A stretch of DNA of 64,000 nt, taken from an uncultured Methanosarcinales archaeon (GTDB lineage: Archaea; Nanobdellota; Nanobdellia; Woesearchaeales; JACJVV01). Shown here piece by piece: positions 24,135 through 38,422 of the stretch. The stretch covers positions 180,823-244,822 of the forward strand of contig CAZOOV010000001.1 in NCBI GenBank assembly GCA_964581515.1, written 5' to 3'. The stretch's first letter is position 1; each line of letters starts with the position of its first letter. The position numbers and the translations under genes were made by a program. The notes beneath the pieces are model-generated. The model was not told the DNA's origin. It saw only the letters and a program-made list of their open reading frames with translations, and did no database searches.

Positions 24135-26441
24135 TTAAATCATTTCAGCGCCAATAGATTTGTTTAATATGCTCATTGCAATAGTATTAAATATGAGTAT
24201 TACAATTGCTGTTAAGAGCGCGTAAAGAATAGTTGAGCGAAGAAGATTTCTTCCAACTAAATTCTCTTCAGTTAACTTATCATCACCATTAGATATTCCT
24301 GCAATTGTCTTTGAAATAATAAAAACTACTTGTACTATGTATAAACCAACTACTATCTGAAAAAAATAAGTAGGGATTCCATCACCAAACATACTTGTCA
24401 AGCCTTCCATACCACTTGCTTGCTCAGAACCCACCTCTATATTCTGAATAGAACTTGAAAGTGTACCAATAATATTAGTTATCATAGCAGTTATACCAAC
24501 AACAATACCAGAGATTACAGGAGCTAAGAATTTTATCAAAGAGTTCATAGAAGAGATTACTTCTCCAAGAAGATCCTTAAGCCTTTCTTCAACAGCATGC
24601 ATCTCTTTAACATATCTTGCAATATTACTCATCGCTTTAGCTGCAATCAATGGACCTTTCTTGATAGATTCTGTCAAAACCTTCATAGTAGAAAGTATTA
24701 ATGAAGAAGGAAAATATTGGATTGCTCCAATCTTCTCATCGAATATAGCCTGTTCAGGCGACATCCCTAGACGTCTGATATTTTGATCAATAATACCAAA
24801 GAATTTTCCTGATTTTGAATCCTGCATGACCTCCACTACTTTACTAAATGACATTTCCAAGGGGATTCCATCTCCCAACCTATTCCCAAGTTGGAATACT
24901 GCTGATCCAAACTCGTCTTCTAATTGTCTTGTCTGTTCACGTATTATTACAATATCTTTTGTTTTAAGAGTATAATATATGCCAACACCAACTCCAAAAG
25001 ACAGTATCAAACAAATACCCAAGAGAGTTGCAATAACACCATAAGGACCTTTATAGATTGGATTTCCATCTTCATCTGCTCCACCTTCACGATAATCAAG
25101 TACAGACATACCTGGTTCTCCTAAATCTACATTTCTCCCAATATAAATATCATTTCCATCTCCTAAAGCAAGATTTAAAATTAAAGGGGATACACCAAGT
25201 AAAAAAAGCGGGATTGCGACAAGTAATGCAGCAAATAAAGGAGTAAATTTGATTCCAAAATGTTTCTTATGTTTCTTCCTTTCCTCAATTACAAGAGGAT
25301 TATCCTCTGATATATCATTCCCACCATAACCTCCTGGCCGCTCTGATAAGATCTTTTTCCCAACAAAATAAACAGAGATAGGTATGACTACATTATATAA
25401 TATCGATAAATGATACCATCGAACACTTTCCATAAAACTTACTACGAGAGGAAGGATTACAAGACCAAGTATCGGAAGGATTACCCCAAGCATATGAAGC
25501 GTACTGATAGGAGATTGAATATCATGAGAATAATGGAGCATCTTCTCATATGTCTCTGAAAGAATCACATCAAGAGCCTTATCAAGTAGAGCTATACGAT
25601 TCTCTTCTTTTCCCTCATATAATGAGGATTCAATAAGATTAATACCTTCTAAGAATTCACTGTTTGTCTTTCTCCATTTTTCCATATAAACATCTAATGA
25701 TTCCTTTATAGTACCATATTTCTGGGATTCAACATCCCATAATACCTTCTTAAGTTCTACAGCAAGAGGACCAGAAAGATGATCACCTGCAAACTCAATT
25801 GCTTTCTCAAGATTTGAGTTCTGACGCATATATGTTACAATATAAAATACACAAATGACAATCTCTTTACTACTTTTCAACCGCCATATGCTAGCAAATA
25901 TGGCAGGAAGTTTTGTCAATGGAATCATAATACCAATTGCTGCTAATAAAAAGAATGAGATAAAGAAAAGATCACCATTCAAAAGAAATATAGATGTAAG
26001 AAGACCAACAACCATAAATATAATTGGGCCAATTATAGCAAAAGCAAAAGTATCTTCAGGTGTAATATTCATATGACAAGTATCAAGCGCTGCCTGTATC
26101 TCTGGCTTCATCTTCTCTCCTGGATTTATTTTTGCAATACTACCTGAAAATTGACATGCTTTCTCATATAAAGAATGCATTGCAGGCTTGTTTTCCTTCA
26201 GAAATTGCCTAAATTCAGGACTAGAGATAAACTGTTCATCAGAATCCATAAATTCTTCTGCTGTCTTCTTTTGTTCTATTAACTTGCCTTTCTTATCTTT
26301 CTTGCCTTTCTTGTCTTTCTTCTTTATTTTATCACTTATTTTCTTTTTCTCAGATATAATATCTTGCTCAATAGCGTTAGTACTACCTGCATCATATTTA
26401 CTCATTGCTTTTCTTATCTCTTCAGGTGATATTTTGTCCAT
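24135..26441 (-). CDS. Type IV pilus/Tad inner-membrane platform protein (two T2SSF-like halves)
   Basis: Multi-TM; NLEKAIEFAGDHLSGPLAVELKK and QLGNRLGDGIPLE halves; directly downstream of the ATPase. Confidence 0.85.
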   Translation of the reverse strand: MDKISPEEIRKAMSKYDAGSTNAIEQDIISEKKKISDKIKKKDKKGKKDKKGKLIEQKKTAEEFMDSDEQFISSPEFRQFLKENKPAMHSLYEKACQFSGSIAKINPGEKMKPEIQAALDTCHMNITPEDTFAFAIIGPIIFMVVGLLTSIFLLNGDLFFISFFLLAAIGIMIPLTKLPAIFASIWRLKSSKEIVICVFYIVTYMRQNSNLEKAIEFAGDHLSGPLAVELKKVLWDVESQKYGTIKESLDVYMEKWRKTNSEFLEGINLIESSLYEGKEENRIALLDKALDVILSETYEKMLHYSHDIQSPISTLHMLGVILPILGLVILPLVVSFMESVRWYHLSILYNVVIPISVYFVGKKILSERPGGYGGNDISEDNPLVIEERKKHKKHFGIKFTPLFAALLVAIPLFLLGVSPLILNLALGDGNDIYIGRNVDLGEPGMSVLDYREGGADEDGNPIYKGPYGVIATLLGICLILSFGVGVGIYYTLKTKDIVIIREQTRQLEDEFGSAVFQLGNRLGDGIPLEMSFSKVVEVMQDSKSGKFFGIIDQNIRRLGMSPEQAIFDEKIGAIQYFPSSLILSTMKVLTESIKKGPLIAAKAMSNIARYVKEMHAVEERLKDLLGEVISSMNSLIKFLAPVISGIVVGITAMITNIIGTLSSSIQNIEVGSEQASGMEGLTSMFGDGIPTYFFQIVVGLYIVQVVFIISKTIAGISNGDDKLTEENLVGRNLLRSTILYALLTAIVILIFNTIAMSILNKSIGAEMI

Positions 26442-26455
26442 TTTTATTTATTTTC

Positions 26456-28747
26456 TTATTTATTTATTCTTGAAAGATTATTCTTCTTAATCGTTTTCTT
26501 AAGCCATTCATTCCATTCATAGAAAATTCTTTTAGTATCAAGGGTACCTACTTCTTCTTTGACAGAATCACTGATTTTATGGAAAAAATCATTACATAAA
26601 ACTGTAAACTTAGCCTCTAACAAATCAGGATTCTTTACTTTTTCAGCCATATCTACTTGTGTCTGTTTAATTTTAGCTCTAAGTTCAATACTTTCCCAAA
26701 TAGCGTCCCAATTATTTGCATATTCTTTAATATTTGATGCTATTGTCTTTAATATCTCTGATTCACCATTCTTTAATTCTGCACTTACCTTCAACTCATC
26801 AGTCTTAGGGTCATATTTCATAAGATCAGTAAAGCCATGTTCAATCAATGGATCATTCACCCAATTCTTTCCCATCTCTGTTATCTGTGTGACTCTCCTA
26901 AACTTATGCAAGCCATCTGCACTTCTGATTGGATTTGCAACAATAATAACATCTGTAGCTTTGAAAGAAGTACTTGGAACACCTATATCATTGACAACAC
27001 GGTCATAAATACCATATGGACTATCACCATGAATAGTTCCTGCGACAGTATTTGCTGCTGCACCAACACGCATAGCTTCATACAAGGCTTTTGCCTCTTC
27101 ACTTCTTACTTCTCCTACAATCAAAGCTGAATCTCCTAACCTTAAAGTTGAACGAATACCATCTGACGCTGTCATCTCTGTAGTGTTCTTTGTCAAAGAT
27201 GATGCTACTTGAAGCGGCTGGATATTGAATCCTAATTTTCTCAAGTGAGGAGTAGGAAGTTCTAATGTATCTTCAATAGTAATAATACGATACTTCCTCA
27301 TTATATCAACAAGAACTGCAGAAAGCAAAGAAGATTTACCTGAACTTCTTGTTCCTGCTATCAACATAGTCCTTGTTCCGTCAATCAGAAAGGAAATAAG
27401 ACCTGCTGCAAATGAATTAATCATTTTTGCTTTTATGAAAAGTGGCAAAGTCCATGGTTTATCCCTATGACGCCTAAAAGAGAATGCTAGTCCTGTAGGA
27501 TCAAGTGGTCTAGTAACTGCCGATACACGAGTTGACGCTCCAGGTAACTCTAATTCTGTATCAAGGATGGGATTTGCTTCATCTAAAGGACGTCCTGACA
27601 TAAGACGTAGTTTTGTTGCCCAAGATTCTACCTCCCTTAATGTAGGGATTATGTTTGTTTTACAATCATCATAATCTTGATGAACGATAAACATAGGAAT
27701 AATTCCAGGAGGTGAGTTAATACTGATATCCTGAATTCTTTCATCAGAAAGAAGAACTTCTATCAATCCAAAACCGACAGTATATCTTACAAGAATTCTT
27801 GTAAGTTTTGCTACTTCTTTCTCAGTCATGGTCATATTCCTGTATGTTGCAAGCTCTTCTATGAGGTCATGACTGATATTGTAGAATACTTCTCTCATTC
27901 TTTCTGGATTTACAAACTCAGATTTTGTAGGTTTGTGTTCTGCCATGACTTGTCTGGCAATGTCAAGTATTTCATATTGTTCTTCATCCAGTTTAAATTC
28001 AGGAGGAAGAATATGGTAAAGATATTGTACAGTCTCAGGAACCTTGAAGACAGTAATCTCTATATCATCATCAACTGTGTAAGAATCTATCTCTTCACCA
28101 TCTAAAGGATAATCTGCCATAAGTTTAGTAAACATAAAGTCTGGTTTTATTGTTGGTGAGAAAATCCTTTGATATAAGTCTCTATTTCCTGGCTTAAAAC
28201 CTGAAAGAAAAGGCTGCACTATCACTATAAGTTTTGTCTTATCCATAAGAGATATAATATACTTCAAAAGCATGAAATATTTCTTATCATGTGGCGCTTG
28301 TGCATTTTGTTCATTATCTGCTGATTCTCTCCTATATATCCTCTTTAACATAACATATGCACTTACAGGATCTTCTTTAATCTTTCTGAATACAATATTT
28401 TGCAGTTCAATATACCTTTGACTGTAAAAAGTATTAAAACTAGCATCTTGAGAAGAAAGATTTGAGATCTGAAACAAATCCTTTTGCTTTAGAAGTTTCT
28501 TATATATCTGTGCTATCTCAACCAAAAGTTTAGTCTGTGCATAATCGTATTCATAATCTCTTTTTTGATAGAAAACAATCTTTGTCACATCACCTACATC
28601 AATAATAGCGTCCACCACTAGTGACATAGCCTCTTCATTATCTTCAACTGAAGGAATCTCACCATAAGTCTCATAATCAATCCTAAGAATTACATCTTCT
28701 GCTTCTCTGATTATTTCATATTTTTTCTTTTTTTCGAAGAGTGGCAT
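26456..28747 (-). CDS. Type II/IV secretion (CpaF/TadA/VirB11-like) ATPase
   Basis: AGTRSSGKSS, ITIEDTLEL, LIVGEVRSEEA, GTIHGDS. Confidence 0.93.
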   Translation of the reverse strand: MPLFEKKKKYEIIREAEDVILRIDYETYGEIPSVEDNEEAMSLVVDAIIDVGDVTKIVFYQKRDYEYDYAQTKLLVEIAQIYKKLLKQKDLFQISNLSSQDASFNTFYSQRYIELQNIVFRKIKEDPVSAYVMLKRIYRRESADNEQNAQAPHDKKYFMLLKYIISLMDKTKLIVIVQPFLSGFKPGNRDLYQRIFSPTIKPDFMFTKLMADYPLDGEEIDSYTVDDDIEITVFKVPETVQYLYHILPPEFKLDEEQYEILDIARQVMAEHKPTKSEFVNPERMREVFYNISHDLIEELATYRNMTMTEKEVAKLTRILVRYTVGFGLIEVLLSDERIQDISINSPPGIIPMFIVHQDYDDCKTNIIPTLREVESWATKLRLMSGRPLDEANPILDTELELPGASTRVSAVTRPLDPTGLAFSFRRHRDKPWTLPLFIKAKMINSFAAGLISFLIDGTRTMLIAGTRSSGKSSLLSAVLVDIMRKYRIITIEDTLELPTPHLRKLGFNIQPLQVASSLTKNTTEMTASDGIRSTLRLGDSALIVGEVRSEEAKALYEAMRVGAAANTVAGTIHGDSPYGIYDRVVNDIGVPSTSFKATDVIIVANPIRSADGLHKFRRVTQITEMGKNWVNDPLIEHGFTDLMKYDPKTDELKVSAELKNGESEILKTIASNIKEYANNWDAIWESIELRAKIKQTQVDMAEKVKNPDLLEAKFTVLCNDFFHKISDSVKEEVGTLDTKRIFYEWNEWLKKTIKKNNLSRINK

Positions 28748-28756
28748 GTAAAAATA

Positions 28757-28924
28757 TCACCTCTTTTTTGTCGCCTTCTTTTCCTGGGAGATTTGTGATT
28801 TGAATTGTTCAAGTGCAATTTCAATGATATGTGATTTATTCCTATAAATAGAAGTATTCTTTGATAATCCATCAAGCCAATCAATCAGATCTTTGTCTAT
28901 TGTTGCAGAGATAGGTTTTTTCAT
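28757..28924 (-). CDS. Ribbon-helix-helix regulator
   Basis: Not in the track. Manual translation MKKPISATIDKDLIDWLDGLSKNTSIYRNKSHIIEIALEQFKSQISQEKKATKKR (55 aa); its stop overlaps the GAGGTGA RBS of the ATPase. Confidence 0.8.
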   Translation of the reverse strand: MKKPISATIDKDLIDWLDGLSKNTSIYRNKSHIIEIALEQFKSQISQEKKATKKR

Positions 28925-29039
28925 CTTATTAAAACATAATATAAAATAATAGTTTATATAAGTTTCTATTATAATATATATAACATAATATGTTTTTTTG
29001 CAGTGATGATTTTCTAGCGAAAACTACTGAACAGAGTTC

Positions 29040-29061
29040 ATACTTTTCTATCGAAAAGTAT
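29040..29061. promoter_or_regulatory. Palindrome in divergent intergenic region (candidate operator)
   Basis: ATACTTTTC-TATC-GAAAAGTAT. Confidence 0.35.
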
Positions 29062-29091
29062 ATAATGTAATACGCCTAAATTCCTATTAGC

Positions 29092-29577
29092 ATGGAATTA
29101 TTCAAGAAAAAAGAAGAGCAACCACCAGCACAAGATGCTCCGAATGCTGCACCTGAGCAAAAAAGCGGAGGTCTTGGAGGACTTTTCCAAGGTGGGAAAC
29201 AAAATGAACAACAGCAAGCAGCAGGAGCGGACGCTTCAAAAGAAATGAATACCTTGTCAAGAAGGATGAGGATTAATGAAGAAAGATCTGTAAACATAAG
29301 AAAAAAAACACAGATGATAGAACATAATATGATAACTAATCATAAAAAACTATTAAGTGAGATAAAGTATGTAAATGAAGAGATAGCAGATATCAAAAGA
29401 GAATTTGAAGAGTTAAAAGCACATGTAAGGAGCTTTTCAAGAGAACTCCAAGAGTCTGCAAAGAAAGAAGACGTACAAGTGCTTGAAAGATATATTAATT
29501 TATGGCAACCTGTTGAATTTGTCACAAGAAATGAAGTAGAGAAAATAGTTAAAGAAATAATGAATCAAAAGCAATAA
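29092..29577 (+). CDS. Coiled-coil protein
   Basis: MELFKKK N-terminus, low-complexity linker, heptads, C-terminal LERYINLWQPVEFVT. Confidence 0.8.
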   Translation: MELFKKKEEQPPAQDAPNAAPEQKSGGLGGLFQGGKQNEQQQAAGADASKEMNTLSRRMRINEERSVNIRKKTQMIEHNMITNHKKLLSEIKYVNEEIADIKREFEELKAHVRSFSRELQESAKKEDVQVLERYINLWQPVEFVTRNEVEKIVKEIMNQKQ

Positions 29578-29660
29578 TAATCGTTAAGTGTGATTTATAA
29601 ATAATAATAAGTTTTAAATATGAGTGATTTTTAAATAAGATAAATAAGATATGATATAAA

Positions 29661-30314
29661 ATGGATGATCCTAACTCGCCTTTGAATTCAAATGTGCCTT
29701 TACCGAAGATATTAGAACTACGCGCACAAGGTACACCAAATAATCAGATAATTCAAATTCTACAAAACGAAGGATATAGCAGTGATCAAATATTTGATGC
29801 CATGAATCAAGCAGATATGCAGCAGAATATTGGACAAGGAATGGCTGCACCTGAGACTGCTCCACAGCAAGAAGGTATGGAAAATCCTATGCAAATGCAA
29901 CCAGAAGGATATGGTGGTTATGAACAACAACAAGGATATGCACAGCCAGGAGCTGGAGGAATGGGTATGGGCGATCCCAACAGAGAGATGATTGAAGAGA
30001 CTGCTGAAGCAATAATCAATGAAAAATGGAAACAAATAGGAGGAAGTATGCAAAAGCTTACTGAATCTAAGGATAAAATAGAGCATCAAGTAAACAAATT
30101 AGAAGCTGATTTTAAACATCTTCAGGATAATTTTGACAAACTACATCAAGCATTGATTGGAAAAATAGGTGAATATGACCAAAATATCCTTAATGTGGGA
30201 ACTGAAATAAAAGCTATGGAAAAAGTATTCCAAAAGATACTCCCTACATTCACTGAGAATGTCAATGAACTCTCAAGAATGACACAAAGAGTAAAAGAAG
30301 GACATAAAGAATAA
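29661..30314 (+). CDS. Coiled-coil protein with Gln/Gly/Met-rich linker
   Basis: Small N-terminal helical domain, disordered linker, long C-terminal coiled coil. Confidence 0.8.
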   Translation: MDDPNSPLNSNVPLPKILELRAQGTPNNQIIQILQNEGYSSDQIFDAMNQADMQQNIGQGMAAPETAPQQEGMENPMQMQPEGYGGYEQQQGYAQPGAGGMGMGDPNREMIEETAEAIINEKWKQIGGSMQKLTESKDKIEHQVNKLEADFKHLQDNFDKLHQALIGKIGEYDQNILNVGTEIKAMEKVFQKILPTFTENVNELSRMTQRVKEGHKE

Positions 30315-30335
30315 TTCTGTTTAATATTTAAATAA

Positions 30336-30351
30336 GCAAAGCGGACTTTTT
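30336..30351. repeat. Solitary right end of the multi-hairpin element
   Basis: GCAAAGCGGACTTTTT vs GCAAAGCTGACTTTTT of copy 1; between convergent genes. Confidence 0.55.
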
Positions 30352-30392
30352 ACTTGTTATATAATAAAAATATAAGAGAATTCTTTCAAGTC

Positions 30393-30992
30393 TTAGCTTC
30401 TGGTCATGAAAAGAACTGTAAATGTAGCAATAAGACCGATTAATGCAAAACCCAAGATTGTAGGATGAAATAATGTCTTTGTCAAATTACTTTGATAATC
30501 ACTTTTAGGTATTGCCCCAGGTGGAAGATCATTAATAACTTCTCCTTCAGGAGTAGTATAGGTACCATCTAAATTCTGAGAATATCCTGGTTGTTCTTCA
30601 AGCAAATCTTGACCAAAAACATTTCCTAAACCCACTGCAACAATAACAATTGCAATAAATATTAAAATCCAAGAGATCCCTCTATATTCACTCATAACAC
30701 TCATTATTTGAGCGTCACTAACACCCATTGATTTAAATCCTATCAAAACAAAGATTATAAAGAAGAATAACACCATAAACCAAGGGGTCATGAATGAAAG
30801 CATACCAGATACTTGCGGACTAATAAGAACTAAGACAGAAGCACATAACGCTATAAAAACATTAACAAATGTGTTCTTTCCAAGTGCATGAGTATATTCA
30901 AGTATAGCAAAAAGGAGTAAGAGAACAAGTAGAGCCGGCATAAACCTGCTCAAACCTTCAACCAAGACTATACCCGATAAGAGATCTGCCAT
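30393..30992 (-). CDS. Multi-pass membrane protein, paralogue 3
   Basis: PALLVLLLLFAILEYTHALG motif. Confidence 0.8.
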   Translation of the reverse strand: MADLLSGIVLVEGLSRFMPALLVLLLLFAILEYTHALGKNTFVNVFIALCASVLVLISPQVSGMLSFMTPWFMVLFFFIIFVLIGFKSMGVSDAQIMSVMSEYRGISWILIFIAIVIVAVGLGNVFGQDLLEEQPGYSQNLDGTYTTPEGEVINDLPPGAIPKSDYQSNLTKTLFHPTILGFALIGLIATFTVLFMTRS

Positions 30993-31053
30993 TTTTCATT
31001 AATTGTTTATGGAGAAATAAATAAAAAATAAAAACCTCCTAAGAGATTTTTAA

Positions 31054-31074
31054 TCTTGCTTTAATAAAGCAAGA
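31054..31074 (-). terminator. Hairpin followed by T-rich tract
   Basis: TCTTGCTTT-AAT-AAAGCAAGA just after the stop of 31084..31683. Confidence 0.4.
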
Positions 31075-31083
31075 AATAAAAAT

Positions 31084-31683
31084 TTATTTTCCTCCACCAA
31101 ACATCTTTCCTATGTCTTCTGTTACTCTGGTAAGGACATTGCTTTTCTTCTCTGTATCATCTTTAGTGATGAACCAAATCAAGACTCCGAATACAAGCAC
31201 TATTATAACAAATGCTGCGATGTCTGGATGCTTATTGATATTTAACCAATCCAACCACCAAGGCACTTCATGCCTGAATCCTGGCCATCCTGTTGATCTT
31301 CCAAAGATGTATAAGATTATTAACAAGGAGATTATTGCAATCCAGCCAGATATGCTTGTACCAAGCCATCTAACTTCTCCGCCTAATATCCCTATTAAGA
31401 GTAAGAGCATAACAACACCGACCAAAACAATCGATACTCCAGGTAATGCACTATTTATTACCGGCACTATGTCTGGTTGCATACCAAGGACATGTGGAAA
31501 TATAACTGCTAAGCCCATAACAAGTGCAATAACTGAGTTAAAATTCTTCTTGCCTTTTCCAAGGATTTCTGTCTTTTGCAAAATTGCAAAAACAATAACA
31601 TATATCAAAAAGAATGGTAATAGCACATCAGCTACTCCCCACTGTTCTAGTAACAATATAAAACCTTTAAAGTTCATGTTCAT
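31084..31683 (-). CDS. Multi-pass membrane protein, paralogue 2
   Basis: GVADVLLPFFLIYVIVFAILQKTEILG motif. Confidence 0.85.
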   Translation of the reverse strand: MNMNFKGFILLLEQWGVADVLLPFFLIYVIVFAILQKTEILGKGKKNFNSVIALVMGLAVIFPHVLGMQPDIVPVINSALPGVSIVLVGVVMLLLLIGILGGEVRWLGTSISGWIAIISLLIILYIFGRSTGWPGFRHEVPWWLDWLNINKHPDIAAFVIIVLVFGVLIWFITKDDTEKKSNVLTRVTEDIGKMFGGGK

Positions 31684-31771
31684 AACCTCCTCATGATAAC
31701 ATTAATATTATTTTAAGGTAGTATCTATATACTGAAAGTTATCATTTATAAATGTTTATGAGTTTTAATAC

Positions 31772-32359
31772 CTAATCTGATTTTTTTGATGATGTTGACT
31801 TTCCTTGATCTGCTCCTTTCATAACAAACCACATGAATAGTACAACAATGATTAATAATACAACTGACGACACCACAGTACTGTTATTGAAATCTGCTAA
31901 AAAGCCAAATAAAACCTGCAACCATGTACGGTTACTTTCTGTCGTGATTGCATTAAGGAATATAAAAATAATTGATACAAACATAATAATCATAAAAATA
32001 GTTGACCATGGCTTCTCAAGATAGACAGGTCCTTCTTCTTCTTTCATGAATGAACCAATCAACATAAGGAAAAATACCGATAATAATAACAAGACTACTA
32101 TTTGTGCTGCAGTCTGATTAACTATTGCAACAATCCTACTTGAGGCAATCGTTAGAAACGCTATAACAAAAGCAGTCATTGCATTAAGATTCTTTTTAGT
32201 TACTTTTGTACCTTCAACTACATCCATACCAAGTACTTTTGTCTTCTCTAAAATTGCAAAGACAATTGTAAACACTAATAAGAAAGGTAGTATTACATCA
32301 TATATACCTAATTTATCAAAAAAAACTAGTGTTCCCCTGAATGTTGATACTTCTGCCAT
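31772..32359 (-). CDS. Multi-pass membrane protein, paralogue 1
   Basis: GIYDVILPFLLVFTIVFAILEKTKVLG motif. Confidence 0.85.
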   Translation of the reverse strand: MAEVSTFRGTLVFFDKLGIYDVILPFLLVFTIVFAILEKTKVLGMDVVEGTKVTKKNLNAMTAFVIAFLTIASSRIVAIVNQTAAQIVVLLLLSVFFLMLIGSFMKEEEGPVYLEKPWSTIFMIIMFVSIIFIFLNAITTESNRTWLQVLFGFLADFNNSTVVSSVVLLIIVVLFMWFVMKGADQGKSTSSKKSD

Positions 32360-32504
32360 TAGATAAAAATCTATTAATCATAATATATAAATCTTTCTGT
32401 TTTTTATATTGACCGAAAAAGAAGATTTTATATATTATAGTCGACTTAATTACTTTAAACATAATATCATCAATTTACAACGTTCGTAAACTGCCAGGCC
32501 CACG

Positions 32505-32984
32505 ATGGAAAAATTTCTTGAACTCCAGGAGTCAGCGTTAACATATCAGAAGAACGCTGAACAAGGTATTAATTTTACTTATCCTTTGGTCAAAGAGAAT
32601 AAAGTACTCCTAAGTGTTGTAAACAACCTATTTTTGGCTGGAACAAACATAATGGGGAGTATTTTACACTATGAACTGCTATATAAGCGTATACCTGCAT
32701 TTAATGATAATTTTGAAGCAAAATATAGGTTAATGCGAAGTAGAATCATGGAAAAATACCATCTTGACGCCCAGTATCTTAAATTAGTACGTGATTTGAA
32801 AGAAATAATAATAGCACATCACGAATCCCCTATTGAATTCTCAAGGGGATCAAAATTCGTCATTTGTAATGATAATTACGAACTGAAGGAAATATCCCTT
32901 GAAAGCCTGAAAGATGCCATGAGAAAAACAAAATTATTTATAGATGAAGTCATTAGCATAACAAAGCAGAAGGAAATTATTTGA
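32505..32984 (+). CDS. Hypothetical helical protein
   Basis: 159 aa; EFSR motif; possibly a distant relative of the next ORF. Confidence 0.75.
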   Translation: MEKFLELQESALTYQKNAEQGINFTYPLVKENKVLLSVVNNLFLAGTNIMGSILHYELLYKRIPAFNDNFEAKYRLMRSRIMEKYHLDAQYLKLVRDLKEIIIAHHESPIEFSRGSKFVICNDNYELKEISLESLKDAMRKTKLFIDEVISITKQKEII

Positions 32985-33117
32985 TAGGTTATGGGTCATG
33001 AACACTTTATTTGCATATAGCAAGTAGAATTTGCCGATTATCAATTTCTTCTCAAGTAAGGCAAAAATACAATAATATGATAAATATTCAATAAATAAAT
33101 ATGAAAGGTGCAAACTA

Positions 33118-33579
33118 ATGCAAGAATCACTTTTTTATGCTTCACAAGAAATGAAAAGAGCTGAACATCTATTATATGTCAGTCTAAAATATACAAGAAC
33201 GGGAGATGTAATAAAGAGCTTAGTATCCAGACTAATAGCATGTTTTGATTTTGTTATAGACGGAATGTTAGAAATAGAAGAAGAAAAAGGTAGTATTGTC
33301 GAAGTACCAAACAGCCCTTTTGCCAAAGTAACAGTATTAAAGAGAATATATAAAGATAATGAAGAGATGTGTGTATATCTTGATTACTATCTCCTACTGA
33401 GAAAAATATCAAGAAGCAATTCAGAAGCATCTCATGAGTTCAGGAGAAATCTTGTATTAAGAGTTAAACTCGATGATAAAGAGGTTGAAATTACAATCGA
33501 TATTTCTGGAGATTATTACCATAAAACTCATGATTTCTTAAAATTTATAAAGGACATCCATATATTAGATGAAAAATGA
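33118..33579 (+). CDS. Hypothetical helical protein
   Basis: 153 aa; AEHLLYV and EFRR; ATGA-coupled to minD. Confidence 0.75.
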   Translation: MQESLFYASQEMKRAEHLLYVSLKYTRTGDVIKSLVSRLIACFDFVIDGMLEIEEEKGSIVEVPNSPFAKVTVLKRIYKDNEEMCVYLDYYLLLRKISRSNSEASHEFRRNLVLRVKLDDKEVEITIDISGDYYHKTHDFLKFIKDIHILDEK

Positions 33580-34391
33580 GAAGTGTGGTTATCGCATCAG
33601 GCAAAGGTGGTGTAGGAAAAACTACTTTAGCCCTTAACCTTGCACTAGCACTTACAAGATATGGTAGACAAACTATACTTGTTGATGGGAATTTTGATTT
33701 TCCCCATGTTGGACTTATGCTTGGTAAATCAAATTTTGAAGAGACAATTATTTCTGCAATTGAAGATAGGAAGAATATAAAAGAAGTAGTGTATAAACAC
33801 CAGTCAGGACTCAAAATCGTACCTGGAAATATATCTTTAGAACATTTACACAAAAAAGATATCAATAAATTCAATAAATTAGTTAATCAATTAGATGAAT
33901 ATGCTGAAATTGTCATTGTTGATTCTGGGCATGGATTTAACAAAGAGAATATAGAAGTAATTGGTAATTGTACTGATATAATTCTTGTAACTACTCCTGA
34001 TTTTGTATCTGTTACAGAGACTCTAAAACTTTTAAAGATTATTAAACAAAATCCTAATTCTAAAATATTAGGTGTGATTGTAAATAAGGATTCAGGAAAA
34101 GATTATGATATGAAAGTAGAAAATATACAAACGTTACTTGGAGAGAAAGTAATTGGGGTTGTACCTGAACATAAGAGCGTCAAACAATCATTGAAACTTA
34201 AACATCCACTTATATATAGCCATCCAAGTTCTGCTGCAACAGAAGCGATTGAAAAAATTGCATGTAATCTAATAAACAAACCATATCAAAAAAAAGAAGT
34301 TGTGAAAAAGACAAAACTTGTAAATATTATGGATAAAGTAGGACTAAAGAAATGGTATGAAACACTTCTAGATGAGGAGGATGAAGATTAA
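33576..34391 (+). CDS. minD: MinD/ParA family ATPase
   Basis: SGKGGVGKTT deviant Walker A, LVDGN, IVPG, VIVDSG, LVTTPD, GVIVNK. Confidence 0.88.
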   Translation: MRSVVIASGKGGVGKTTLALNLALALTRYGRQTILVDGNFDFPHVGLMLGKSNFEETIISAIEDRKNIKEVVYKHQSGLKIVPGNISLEHLHKKDINKFNKLVNQLDEYAEIVIVDSGHGFNKENIEVIGNCTDIILVTTPDFVSVTETLKLLKIIKQNPNSKILGVIVNKDSGKDYDMKVENIQTLLGEKVIGVVPEHKSVKQSLKLKHPLIYSHPSSAATEAIEKIACNLINKPYQKKEVVKKTKLVNIMDKVGLKKWYETLLDEEDED

Positions 34392-34930
34392 TGCCTAAAA
34401 AAAAAGAAGTGAAGAAAAATAATAAGAAAACTAAAACTATTTCCCAAGAAGAAATCACTTCTTCTACCTTAGAGCGCATTAAAAGGCTTGAAGACATTCA
34501 TCAGAGAAAATTAGAAGAACATACTTCTTCTGATACAACTGCTTTTTGGACATTCCTATTAATTGCTATTATTACTAATTTTTTCTTATCATTCATATTA
34601 GTATTCTTATTAGTATTTCTTAATGACCCGCTTTTATATGCATTAGTTATAATAATTGGTCTTAGTTTTGGATATGTTTATACATTTCTTATCCATAGCC
34701 TTAGACATACTTTCTTCCATCATCATATGTATTCCAAGATGTTTATATTCATCACAGGAGCAATAAACATATTTTATATTGTAACCACAAGTGAGATTGT
34801 GTTCAATGGATTTAATATACCAAATGATTTCTATAATCAGATAGGAATTCCAATAGTATATTTCATAGCTTATCTTGCACCTTATTTCCTTGAGAAGATG
34901 TGGAAAGTATTGTTTGGAAAAGCGTTTTAA
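34391..34930 (+). CDS. Four-TM membrane protein
   Basis: Basic N-terminus followed by hydrophobic helices; translationally coupled to minD. Confidence 0.75.
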   Translation: MPKKKEVKKNNKKTKTISQEEITSSTLERIKRLEDIHQRKLEEHTSSDTTAFWTFLLIAIITNFFLSFILVFLLVFLNDPLLYALVIIIGLSFGYVYTFLIHSLRHTFFHHHMYSKMFIFITGAINIFYIVTTSEIVFNGFNIPNDFYNQIGIPIVYFIAYLAPYFLEKMWKVLFGKAF

Positions 34931-35023
34931 TACTCAAAAAAGCATACTCATGAGTTTTACTTTTTTGGTCGAAATCCTCTCAGGAAACTCACAACTTCAA
35001 TTGTGAGAGGATTTCATTACGCA

Positions 35024-35037
35024 AAAAGCTTTATAAA
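35024..35037 (+). promoter_or_regulatory. BRE-TATA promoter of tRNA-His
   Basis: AAAAGCTTTATAAA about 30 nt upstream of the tRNA. Confidence 0.5.
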
Positions 35038-35067
35038 ACAAAGTTAATTTATCTGATTAAATTATAT

Positions 35068-35206
35068 GGCGGCCTTAGTGTAGTCTGGTTAGCATAGAAG
35101 ACTGTGGACGATTGCTCACCTGTTTACAAAAACAGGCAGAAATCTTCTGGCCCGAGTTCAAAACAGCCTTGATTTCTTCAAGGTTGGTGAAAGTCTCGGG
35201 GGCCGC
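35068..35206 (+). tRNA. tRNA-His(GUG) with two introns (37/38 at 35108-35141; 59/60 at 35163-35192)
   Basis: Encoded G-1, acceptor GCGGCCT/GGGCCGC, C73 discriminator, anticodon arm GAAGA-CTGTGG^A-TCTTC, T arm CCGAG-TTCAAA^T-CTCGG; relaxed BHB at both junctions; CCA not encoded. Confidence 0.92.
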
Positions 35207-35221
35207 CCTTTTTTCTTTAAG

Positions 35222-35836
35222 ATGAAAGGAACTATAAATGGTAAAAAAGCAAGAGAATATGATAAACAAGTAAATGCAACTACAAGAAGCAATAAGAAAA
35301 ATTCTTTCCTTAATAGAGAAATTAAAGGCAAAAAGAATATAATTGTAGACCTATGCTGTGGAAGTGGAATTTCTTTAGATGTTTTACTTACAAAAGCTAA
35401 AAAAATCTATGCAATTGATGCTTCTGAAGAAATGATAAGTATTTGCAAAGAAAAAGTAAAGAATGAAAAAGTAAAATTTATTGTTTCTGATGTTAGGAAT
35501 GTCTCTATAAAAGATGAAGAATGCGATTATGTCATCATAAGAATGGGATTGCACCATATCAGAGATAAACAAGGAGTTATTGAAGAAGCATATAGAATTT
35601 TAAAGAAAAAAGGAAAATTATTAGTCATTGATAGGTTTAGATGTGAAAACATCATAATGACTTATCTGAAAGATATAATAAGAAATATTCATATGGGGAT
35701 GAATGCATTCCAACACCATTATATTAAATTAAATGAGTTTTATAAGATGATAAATGGAAAATTTAAAGTAATAAATAAGTTTGAACACAAGATTAAGTTT
35801 TATACAAAAGCAAACATCGTCTTAAAAAAGATCTAA
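35222..35836 (+). CDS. Class I SAM-dependent methyltransferase
   Basis: VDLCCGSG, YAIDAS, FIVSDV, RMGLHHI, RILKKKGKLLVID. Confidence 0.88.
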   Translation: MKGTINGKKAREYDKQVNATTRSNKKNSFLNREIKGKKNIIVDLCCGSGISLDVLLTKAKKIYAIDASEEMISICKEKVKNEKVKFIVSDVRNVSIKDEECDYVIIRMGLHHIRDKQGVIEEAYRILKKKGKLLVIDRFRCENIIMTYLKDIIRNIHMGMNAFQHHYIKLNEFYKMINGKFKVINKFEHKIKFYTKANIVLKKI

Positions 35837-35925
35837 TATTCTGATGTAACCATTAATTAGTACTACACAAAGTTTATAATATTTTTCAGTGGATAGTTAT
35901 TATTCAGTGGTGGGGTGTTAATATA

Positions 35926-36888
35926 ATGGGACTTTTCGGTAAAAAACAAGATAAGAATTCTGAACCTCCTTTACCAGATAATCTGCCGCCCCTTGACAGC
36001 GCTCCTCCAGTTGGCGCGCCAGGTTCTGTACCACCAATCCAACCTAACATTACAACTCATGATCAAATACCTAATGATATACAATTAAATCCACCTGTAC
36101 CAGATATGCCTCCACCTACACAACCAAGCATGGGTGAGCCATTGATTAATAATAATAGTTTTGCACCACATCCTGCACTTGGACCTGAACAAGGAATGAT
36201 GCAAAAGACGAAAGAACAAAAACTTCCAGAACCAAATATACCTAATCCAGATACATTCTCAGCAGGTGTTCCAGGAAATGTTGAAGCTCAAGAGCCAGAT
36301 AGTCTTCCAGATTTACCTGAGATAGACCATAGTAGTACTGAACTACCTGAGCTTCCAGACATAAAAGACATACCTAATCCAAGACCACAGAGTCAAAGCG
36401 CTGCACCAACCCAGATAGAAGAGCCAAGACCACAAGTAGATGATGAGGTCCCTACTCCACCACCAATATTCTCTGATGAGGAATTCTATGAAACACCTAA
36501 TGAAATAAGGCATCTTGTCAATGAGAAAAAGATTAAACATCATCATCATAAACCTAAACAATTATTTGCTGAAGAACATACTTATGTTCATGAAGACGTA
36601 GAAGATGATATACCAAAAGAAGCACCTGGAAAAGAAGGAGTAGAAGGAGGAATGGAGAATTACCATCAAAGACCAGGACCAATATTTATTAATATTGATG
36701 CTTTCAAAGGAATGCTGGGAGATATAGAAACTATTCAAAAGGACATTAAATCATCTGAGTTGATACTACAACATCTTCAGGAAATCAAAAATGCAAAAGA
36801 TATGGAACTTGAAAGATGGAGAGTACAACTTGAAAATATTCAAAAAAAAGTAACATATGTTGATAAAGTTTTATTCAATGAGGCATAA
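35926..36888 (+). CDS. Pro/acid-rich disordered protein with C-terminal helical hairpin
   Basis: MGLFGKK start, ~230 aa low-complexity region, His patch, C-terminal PIFINID...VDKVLF. Confidence 0.8.
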   Translation: MGLFGKKQDKNSEPPLPDNLPPLDSAPPVGAPGSVPPIQPNITTHDQIPNDIQLNPPVPDMPPPTQPSMGEPLINNNSFAPHPALGPEQGMMQKTKEQKLPEPNIPNPDTFSAGVPGNVEAQEPDSLPDLPEIDHSSTELPELPDIKDIPNPRPQSQSAAPTQIEEPRPQVDDEVPTPPPIFSDEEFYETPNEIRHLVNEKKIKHHHHKPKQLFAEEHTYVHEDVEDDIPKEAPGKEGVEGGMENYHQRPGPIFINIDAFKGMLGDIETIQKDIKSSELILQHLQEIKNAKDMELERWRVQLENIQKKVTYVDKVLFNEA

Positions 36889-36890
36889 AA

Positions 36891-37106
36891 ATGGAAGGAA
36901 AATCACTATACGTTAAAGTTGATGATTACAAAGATATCGTTGATATCATGACTTTGATTAAGAAAAAGATCCAGGATGCAAAAGGCATCTTAAACTCAAT
37001 CAATAATCTGAAGAACGATGAAGATATAGAAATAGATGAGTGGAATAATAATATTGAAGAGATTGATAGAAAAATAGATGACCTAGATAGGGCATTATTC
37101 GAGTAA
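36891..37106 (+). CDS. Stand-alone helical-hairpin protein, paralogue of the previous C-terminus
   Basis: LYVKVDDYK...EDIEIDEW...LDRALFE. Confidence 0.8.
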   Translation: MEGKSLYVKVDDYKDIVDIMTLIKKKIQDAKGILNSINNLKNDEDIEIDEWNNNIEEIDRKIDDLDRALFE

Positions 37107-37222
37107 AATAAAAAAATCCCAACCACCGCAAAGGTGAGGTATTTTTAATGTTATGATACCACATCAATGCGAGAAATAAGAGAGGAAATCCAACCAATAT
37201 AAGCAGAGTGGAATCATAACAA

Positions 37223-37585
37223 ATGAGCGAAGAAGAATCATCATTCTATGTTGCTATACAAGATCCAAAGAGTTTTAGAAGAGAACTACTAGGATCAAGT
37301 AAGGATATGATTAAGCTTCTTCAAAAATATGAAGACATAAAGAAGATTAGAGAACAAAAGATTAAGCTTATGTATGAATTCTCACAAACAAAAACCGAAA
37401 TTGCAATGCTTATGGGTAAGTTAAAGCGAGCAATACCTAAAACAAAATTAAGAAATGCATATGATAACCCTAAAGTAATTGAGAAAAAGAAGATTGTAGC
37501 ACCGCGTAAAGAAGTACACCCTGATCTTTCAAGTCTTCAGAATGAACTTGCTTCTATTGAAGAGAAATTAGGTAAATTGAAGTAA
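37223..37585 (+). CDS. Coiled-coil protein
   Basis: FYVAIQDPKSFRRELL followed by long helices. Confidence 0.78.
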   Translation: MSEEESSFYVAIQDPKSFRRELLGSSKDMIKLLQKYEDIKKIREQKIKLMYEFSQTKTEIAMLMGKLKRAIPKTKLRNAYDNPKVIEKKKIVAPRKEVHPDLSSLQNELASIEEKLGKLK

Positions 37586-38288: not shown

Positions 38289-38422
38289 TGTGAGGGAGGG
38301 GATTCGAACCCCCGAACCCACTAAAGGACAGGATGCCTCAAACGCTGAAAGTCATTGTGTTTTCACACTCTTAACTCAATTTCTTGAGTCCTGCGCGTTT
38401 GACCAGACTTCGCTACCCTCAC
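38289..38422 (-). tRNA. tRNA-Leu(CAA) with 48-nt intron at 37/38 (38335-38382)
   Basis: Acceptor GTGAGGG/CCCTCAC, A73, CAGGA-CTCAAG^A-TCCTG, long variable arm, GGTTCGAATCC; BHB central helix CTCA/TGAG. Confidence 0.95.

Follow-up and report, generated by a model that had tools for sequence, protein, structure and literature searches.

Three adjoining gene modules around a pilus-type motor and a MinD ATPase in a genome of the Woesearchaeales

Genes and modules of the stretch

The 64,000-nucleotide window analysed here (C1:180823-244822) comes from a genome of the Woesearchaeales, whose assembly comprises 2.03 Mb in 22 contigs and has a GC content of about 33%. The relatives of this genome all carry the labels Candidatus Woesearchaeota or Nanoarchaeota. 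Positions 24135-37585 of the window hold 16 convincing open reading frames (ORFs), numbered g01-g16 (Table 1), which include the ATPase and the platform protein of a pilus-type motor and a MinD ATPase. A preliminary description of this 13-kb stretch interpreted it as a single system. All ORFs that it claimed were found in place; one further gene, g13, which encodes an S-adenosylmethionine (SAM)-dependent methyltransferase, had been left out. The stretch is, however, composed of three independently conserved modules, which adjoin each other in one genus only. These are Module A (24135-32359), with the motor and its partner genes; Module B (32505-34930), with MinD; and Module C (35926-37585), with a long proline-rich protein.

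An ortholog of the ATPase was sought in 41 genomes of the order, and 38 genera were sampled. Twenty loci of 20 kb were collected via the ATPase and 80 more via an alignment of the platform proteins. All 16 families were mapped onto these 100 loci by tblastn and hidden Markov model searches. Five of the genomes belong to the same genus (loci L001, L002, and L030-L032).

The gene order of Module A, g08-g07-g06 / g05-g04 / g03-g02-g01, recurs across families, and g09-g16 were found beside the ATPase only in the five same-genus loci. The platform gene is located adjacent to, downstream of, and in the same orientation as the ATPase gene in 78 of 83 loci, and the ATPase is preceded by a gene for a ribbon-helix-helix (RHH) protein in 54 of 86. 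Among the 48 loci with at least 7 kb of sequence upstream of the ATPase, the complete g04-g08 set was present in 31, some of these genes in 6, and none in 11. In other orders of the class, the membrane-protein triplet g06-g08 again lies 3-5 kb from the platform gene. The genes of Module A are dispersed in one 0.5-Mb genome assembled as a single contig. Gene order across relatives, which the preliminary description had named as the check on its single 13-kb system, is not conserved beyond the genus. Since the modules adjoin only within this genus, MinD-guided positioning of the motor is unsupported by gene order. We favour, as the probable reading, a juxtaposition of three modules, in which Module A is the core type-IV-filament-like machine of this lineage with lineage-specific partners, and MinD is not dedicated to it.

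Table 1. Protein-coding genes at positions 24135-37585 of the window (aa, amino acids; TM, transmembrane helices)
Gene	Module	Position	Strand	Product and features
g01	A	24135..26441	-	768-aa polytopic membrane protein; putative, very divergent two-repeat FlaJ/TadC/GspF-type platform
g02	A	26456..28747	-	763-aa long-form FlaI/GspE/CpaF-type secretion ATPase; N-terminal motif MPLFEKKKK
g03	A	28757..28924	-	55-aa RHH protein; opens the ATPase-platform operon
g04	A	29092..29577	+	161 aa; N-terminal MELFKKK, disordered linker, conserved coiled coil
g05	A	29661..30314	+	217 aa; small helical N-domain, Q/G/P-rich linker, conserved coiled coil
g06	A	30393..30992	-	199-aa 5-TM protein; triplet paralog C; long variable loop, predicted to be outer
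g07	A	31084..31683	-	199-aa 5-TM protein; triplet paralog A
g08	A	31772..32359	-	195-aa 5-TM protein; triplet paralog B
g09	B	32505..32984	+	159-aa helical protein; unnamed family; no Pfam match
g10	B	33118..33579	+	153-aa helical protein; distant g09 paralog; motif RADHLxYVSLKYTRT
g11	B	33576..34391	+	Archaeal-type MinD ATPase
g12	B	34391..34930	+	179-aa membrane protein, next after MinD
g13		35222..35836	+	Class I SAM-dependent methyltransferase; Methyltransf_11, 76.3 bits
g14	C	35926..36888	+	320 aa; N-terminal MGLFGKK, Pro/acidic disordered region of ~230 aa, 70-aa C-terminal domain
g15	C	36891..37106	+	71 aa; free copy of the g14 C-terminal domain
g16	C	37223..37585	+	120-aa helical protein; third gene of a conserved operon

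The motor and its partner proteins

The secretion ATPase g02 possesses a Pfam T2SSE domain (58.8 bits; cut-off 24.9). Its best NCBIfam model is that of FlaI (NF058587), which scored 142.7 bits against a cut-off of 550. In PDB sequences, the best match was afGspE (2oap; 9e-31), followed by CpaF (5e-23) and FlaI (2e-18). The Walker A motif GTRSSGKSS and the motifs IITIEDTLEL, GEVRSEEA, and GTIHGDSP, which follow it, were read directly from the translation. At its N-terminus, the protein is extended by about 250 aa. All 41 genomes of the order yielded a match to the ATPase, which in 40 of them was the long form, with one gene per genome and an identity of 54-83% where the gene was full length. 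The gene g03, separated from the ATPase gene by 9 nt, scored 21.7 bits with RHH_3 (cut-off 21.6).

The platform protein is far from the available models. The window protein g01 has no match in Pfam or NCBIfam, and the platform alignment, used as a profile against PDB, gave no match. Only one of 16 platform orthologs touched T2SSF, at 2.6e-4. The two halves of g01 could be aligned by hhalign to bona fide T2SSF proteins from the same genome, with E-values of about 1e-4 and 7e-4. In an AlphaFold2 model of g01 (predicted local distance difference test, pLDDT, 75), only the cytoplasmic domain of GspF/EpsF/OutF was matched confidently (Foldseek probability 0.99-1.0; TM-score 0.72-0.76), and the whole-chain matches obtained in a fold search with the complete model were all non-significant. 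The identity of platform orthologs is mostly 41-49% outside the genus (30% in one case) and 67% within it. On these profile alignments and the modelled fold, g01 was accepted as a very divergent two-repeat platform of the FlaJ/TadC/GspF type. The pilus ATPase and the probable platform named in the preliminary description were recovered by the T2SSE domain and by the GspF-fold domain and T2SSF-like repeats, respectively, and its RHH gene by a score marginally above the Pfam cut-off.

The three membrane proteins g06-g08 had been described as paralogous, and BLASTP showed that they are (g07-g08, 7e-14; g06-g07, 5e-4). The profile of this triplet was searched against a sample of 301 near-complete genomes from the GTDB phylum. 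It was detected in 297 genomes, nearly always in three copies, and all 297 belong to the same order or class. In the alignment, the copies fall into three orthologous subgroups. World-wide, the family comprises 3706 clusters at 50% identity; its top matches are all stand-alone proteins of about 190 aa, and its named relatives are all annotated as 'hypothetical protein' and contain no Pfam domain. The AlphaFold2 model of g07 (pLDDT 84.9) displays five transmembrane helices. No match to g07 was found in Pfam or NCBIfam, and no relative of its fold in PDB (best E-value 1.5). According to the positive-inside rule, the N-terminus of the triplet proteins would be located outside and the lysine-rich C-terminal tail inside, so that the long variable loop of g06 would face outward. 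The best representative match of the family, a protein of 365 aa (P0121), contains two tandem matches. This suggests a fusion of two triplet paralogs, which would fit a hetero-oligomer of paralogs.

The other two partners, g04 and g05, are soluble proteins; in each, a disordered N-terminal part precedes a well conserved coiled coil at the C-terminus. Orthologs of g04 adjoin the ATPase in most loci, and g05 is syntenic with g04. Both proteins yielded only generic coiled-coil matches in Pfam and PDB and no specific family, and the alignment of g04 with g05 by hhalign was not significant. The same was true for a short helical motif at the N-terminus, which on visual inspection seemed common to g05 (LQ..GYS..QI..A; window 29661-29830) and g12 orthologs (L..KGWS.EEI..A; L021-L028); its comparison gave an E-value of 0.06 over 17 columns. 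Taken together, searches of Pfam, NCBIfam, and PDB sequences with g04-g10, g12, and g14-g16 returned generic coiled-coil noise only. The description of a pilus-type motor that is uncharacterised, and whose paralogous membrane partners and coiled-coil partners are unassigned, is supported. That the module is so strongly conserved, with a fixed number of copies, suggests that it forms a structure which the cells cannot do without, in contrast to an optional adhesin.

Several of these proteins begin with a short motif, termed LF-KK. In its strict form, M-x(0-2)-[LFIMW]-F-x(0-3)-KK, it was detected in 11 of the 1784 ORFs encoded by the genome, including the ATPase, g04, and g14. These three belong to the 16-gene stretch, a clustering for which our own hypergeometric estimate is about 1e-4. 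A looser form within the first 60 residues occurs in 40% of ATPase, 47% of g04, and 50% of g05 orthologs, whereas among 844 further ORFs of the same loci the frequency is 7.3%, and among platforms 3%; these percentages describe recurrence and not probability, the orthologs not being independent samples. At least one of the three proteins, and usually two, carries the motif in 36 of 44 complete loci, and the carriers vary by lineage. In the genus studied here, the motif sits on the ATPase and g04, and g05 of the window lacks it; elsewhere it is typically found on g05, as MALFGKKK. The N-terminus of the long protein of Module C is almost always of the MGxxxFxKKK type. The shared MxLFxKK N-terminus that had been pointed out earlier is real, enriched in the ATPase, g04, and g05 orthologs, and found also in Module C. 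The accompanying idea of an amphipathic membrane-targeting helix stands in part. Known N-terminal membrane tethers have a hydrophobic-then-basic composition, and the motif shares this make-up; with about eight residues on the ATPase, it is too short for a full amphipathic helix. By analogy with such tethers, it probably attaches cytoplasmic parts to the membrane.

Modules B and C

The product of g11 was identified as an archaeal-type MinD, in agreement with its earlier naming as MinD. It scored 198.2 bits with TIGR01969, just under the cut-off of 201.75, and its best match in PDB was 1hyq (3e-38). It contains CbiA and ParA domains and a deviant Walker A motif, SGKGGVGKTT, as read from the translation. 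This is the sole MinD-like copy in the genome. Among 24 near-complete genomes surveyed, all of which possess the motor module, MinD was found in 16, and one further divergent copy was also detected. Outside the genus, MinD is 26-39% identical to g11 and is never near the ATPase, being located tens to hundreds of kb away. Apparent MinD genes beside the platform in four other loci were rejected; these are actually ParA-like genes with 30-bit scores, more than 6 kb away.

MinD has a conserved neighbourhood of its own. A g10-type gene precedes MinD in all nine MinD loci and a g09-type gene in eight of the nine, and a g12-type gene follows in seven. The locus without g09 is L025, where the g10-type ORF gives a weak cross-match; g09 and g10 are only distant paralogs. 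Typically, a NAC-like gene is located upstream of this operon, and the S13-S4-S11-RpoD operon downstream (L021-L029, L126-L131). Of the 24 genomes, 23 contain the g09/g10 pair, which persists after the loss of MinD or of both MinD and g12; where MinD alone was lost, the g12 orthologs directly follow g10. Since the pair survives the loss of MinD, the latter is an accessory member of its own operon. Module B can do without it, and it is probably not a factor that serves specifically to position Module A.

The arrangement g14-g15-g16 of Module C was present in 36 of 41 genomes, at sites unrelated to Modules A and B. It comprises a tagged long protein with a proline-rich linker and a 70-aa domain, a free copy of this domain, and a g16-type gene (L110-L125); in 14 of 16 loci, the latter comes after the short gene. 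The three proteins encoded here had been grouped as helical hairpins. Two of them are indeed related, since the C-terminus of g14 and g15 are paralogous (BLASTP, 5e-10). No relationship of g16 could be detected, as its hhalign comparisons with g14/g15 and with g04/g05 were not significant. The architecture of the long protein recalls the membrane tethers SepF or ZipA; no homology to these was found. Modules B and C are probably separate membrane-associated units.

These data bear on the possibility of a single system made up of all 14-16 genes, whose MinD, assisted by the helical and hairpin scaffold proteins, would bring a host-attachment machine of the pilus type to a defined site on the membrane. 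The contiguity of the genes, which is seen also in the five same-genus genomes, and the N-terminal motif common to proteins of Modules A and C would fit such a system, and TadZ/CpaE and MinD4 of Haloferax are examples of MinD-like ATPases able to position such machines. However, the adjacency is limited to one of the 38 genera sampled, and MinD was not found in about a third of the genomes with Module A. Its own conserved operon lies beside ribosomal genes, and its score is of the archaeal type and not of the CpaE/TadZ type, the CpaE-homolog model TIGR03815 giving 44.7 bits against a cut-off of 154. Module C is likewise unlinked elsewhere. The inclusion of MinD and the genes downstream of it among the parts of the motor system could not be upheld, given a linkage that is genus-limited, a MinD that belongs to its own operon, and an independent Module C; we regard a single system as improbable.

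The methyltransferase gene g13 adjoins the region solely within the genus, as seen from the locus maps. A tRNA-His candidate at 35068-35206 was discarded, because neither ARAGORN nor Rfam detected it, even at a relaxed threshold. An intron-containing tRNA at window positions 38289-38422 is found by Rfam and missed by ARAGORN. The scan for bacterial promoters and terminators revealed no enrichment, its models being bacterial and unsuited to an archaeon.

Substrates, nature of the Module A machine, and known systems

Genes that would fit a pilus-type system are found in these genomes outside of Module A. An A24 prepilin peptidase (PF01478) was identified in 38 of 41 genomes, with three matches in the genome studied here. 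In a simple pattern scan, this genome revealed many ORFs with class-III-type signal peptides, which are clustered on contigs C7, C8, and C12. The likely pilin sets are located at C12:27782-42109, C8:960-5889, and C7:11136-16352, e.g. KRAQAAMEFLMTYGWALLVV, and none of them is linked to any ATPase locus. The same scan detected no pilin-like ORF in Module A of the window. Three near-complete genomes (G028, G031, and G035) contain no other T2SSE ATPase at E<=1e-20 and yet have kept the A24 peptidase. Because no other such ATPase is available there, Module A is the only candidate motor for class-III substrates in these three organisms. The occurrence, in nanoarchaea, of ATPases of one clade without identifiable cognate pilins was remarked earlier (Makarova, Koonin and Albers 2016, PMC4858521). 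Also, the genome studied here has two further, ordinary pilus-type loci: one at the end of a contig, at C10:110036-114099, where an ATPase gene is accompanied by two TadC genes and by a gene for a KaiC-type ATPase; and one at C4:82088-84741, with an ATPase and two small T2SSF genes.

The following mode of action can be proposed for Module A. The RHH protein g03 would autoregulate the ATPase-platform operon. The ATPase hexamer would dock on the cytoplasmic domains of the platform and drive the insertion or extraction of class-III-signal-peptide proteins, which are encoded elsewhere and presumably cut by the A24 prepilin peptidase. The proteins g04 and g05 would probably form a cytoplasmic scaffold around the motor, comparable to FlaX or FlaC/D/E in archaella, and g06-g08 a hetero-oligomeric membrane collar around the platform, with the variable loops exposed outside. 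The LF-KK tag on the ATPase, g04, and g05 would probably hold the cytoplasmic parts at the membrane.

Several points weigh against the interpretation of Module A as an independent core filament machine. The assignment of the platform was made from weak profile scores and one domain-level fold match. The roles of g04-g08 were deduced from the architecture of these proteins, which have no relatives among families, PDB sequences, or folds. No pilin gene belongs to the conserved module, pilin-like ORFs occur only sporadically within 3 kb of it in the 100 loci, and most genomes hold other T2SSE ATPases, by which the pilins might be served instead. Finally, the adjacency of the modules in all five same-genus genomes may reflect local co-regulation. 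A functional link between MinD and the motor may also exist in trans, and we found no positive argument for such a link.

The FlaI model being the best NCBIfam model for the ATPase, Module A could also be taken for the motor of a strongly derived archaellum, that is, a motility device. Surveys of Woesearchaeota list flaI and flaJ by KEGG annotation (PMC11606122), and the conservation of the ATPase is as high as in typical archaellum motors. However, archaellins (PF01917) are absent from 10 of the 11 genomes tested, this one included, and in the remaining genome they are located 470 kb from the module. The proteins g03-g08 match no Fla family, and FlaH, FlaF, and FlaG are missing from the module (Pfam, NCBIfam). 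Since archaellins are absent and the FlaI score is far below its cut-off, Module A is not an archaellum, and this origin of the motor is very improbable. One sister genome harbours nine archaellin (PF01917) genes in a single cluster (G001:C1:565513-579996), and none are present in the genome studied here or in another sister genome. Motility genes thus vary within the genus.

The view of Module A as the core filament machine of the lineage has also to be compared with another explanation, namely, that the pilus-type motor, the triplet, and the coiled-coil proteins together make up a distinct nanoarchaeotal envelope machine, such as the engine of an attachment organelle or tube, or a conduit for DNA or proteins. 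The module contains no pilin, its five conserved partners have no relatives in any library searched, and it is near-universal in the class at a constant copy number, which one would not usually expect of adhesive pili. Cryo-electron tomography of the cultivated nanoarchaeon Nanobdella revealed an attachment organelle with a 7-nm tube, whose composition and molecular identity are unknown (PMC11104419). However, few members of the class have been cultivated, so that the lifestyle of most is deduced indirectly, and the A24 peptidase together with abundant pilin-like genes would fit an ordinary filament system equally well. We consider a distinct machine unlikely, if by no means negligible. The more specific idea that Module A is an undescribed envelope machine which defines the class Nanoarchaeia, serves as the motor of the host-attachment organelle and its thin tube, and uses the LF-KK peptide as a common membrane or docking tag is quite unlikely.

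DPANN archaea need physical contact with their hosts, and the molecules of the contact structures are unknown (PMC11104419, PMC11329633). The eight genes of Module A, strongly conserved and near-universal, offer a candidate set for testing in the few cultivated nanoarchaea. They include the 5-TM triplet, a large unannotated family without any fold relative, and the recurrent N-terminal tag represents a simple experimental handle. New in this study are the count of triplet genes across the class, the separation of the MinD module from the proline-rich one, the tests for archaellins and peptidase, and the behaviour of the motif. The analysis also provides a correction: the location of MinD beside a pilus motor in one genus does not amount to a positioning system.

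The LF-KK motif is comparable to the membrane-targeting sequences of MinE and SepF, which likewise consist of a short hydrophobic N-terminal stretch followed by lysines. The long protein of Module C, which continues from the motif into a flexible linker and ends in a small domain, has a SepF/MinE-like layout. Unlike in MinE and SepF, the motif does not reach the length of a full amphipathic helix, and no homology to these proteins was detected.

Bacterial Tad/Cpa systems with TadZ/CpaE share with the examined genome a CpaF-related ATPase and a MinD-family ATPase nearby. In contrast to these systems, the MinD found here is archaeal-type and belongs to its own operon, its linkage to the motor is genus-specific, and the locus lacks the Flp pilin, the TadV peptidase, the secretin, and TadG. 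The archaellum (FlaI-FlaJ-FlaH with FlaX or FlaC/D/E) also combines a conserved ATPase-platform core with coiled-coil cytoplasmic proteins, and by analogy those of Module A could form a FlaX-like ring. They are, however, unrelated in sequence to FlaX or FlaC/D/E, most genomes examined here have no archaellins, FlaH, FlaF, and FlaG are not part of the module, and archaella have no membrane triplet.

Archaeal type IV pili (T4P) resemble Module A in the adjacent ATPase-platform pair, as in PilB/PilC of Haloferax, AapE/AapF and UpsE/UpsF of Sulfolobus, and Epd of Methanococcus (PMC4858521). An A24 peptidase and class-III-signal-peptide proteins are encoded in the genome in this case too. The differences from archaeal T4P are the following: the N-terminus of the ATPase is extended by about 250 aa; the platform, twice as large as usual, is not recognised by the Pfam T2SSF model; the locus has no pilins and contains five conserved partner genes that have no counterpart there; and the module is near-universal, in a fixed copy number, across the whole class. 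In these comparisons, Module A proved to be neither an archaellum nor a Tad/TadZ system; it would work like the core of archaeal T4P or of the archaellum.

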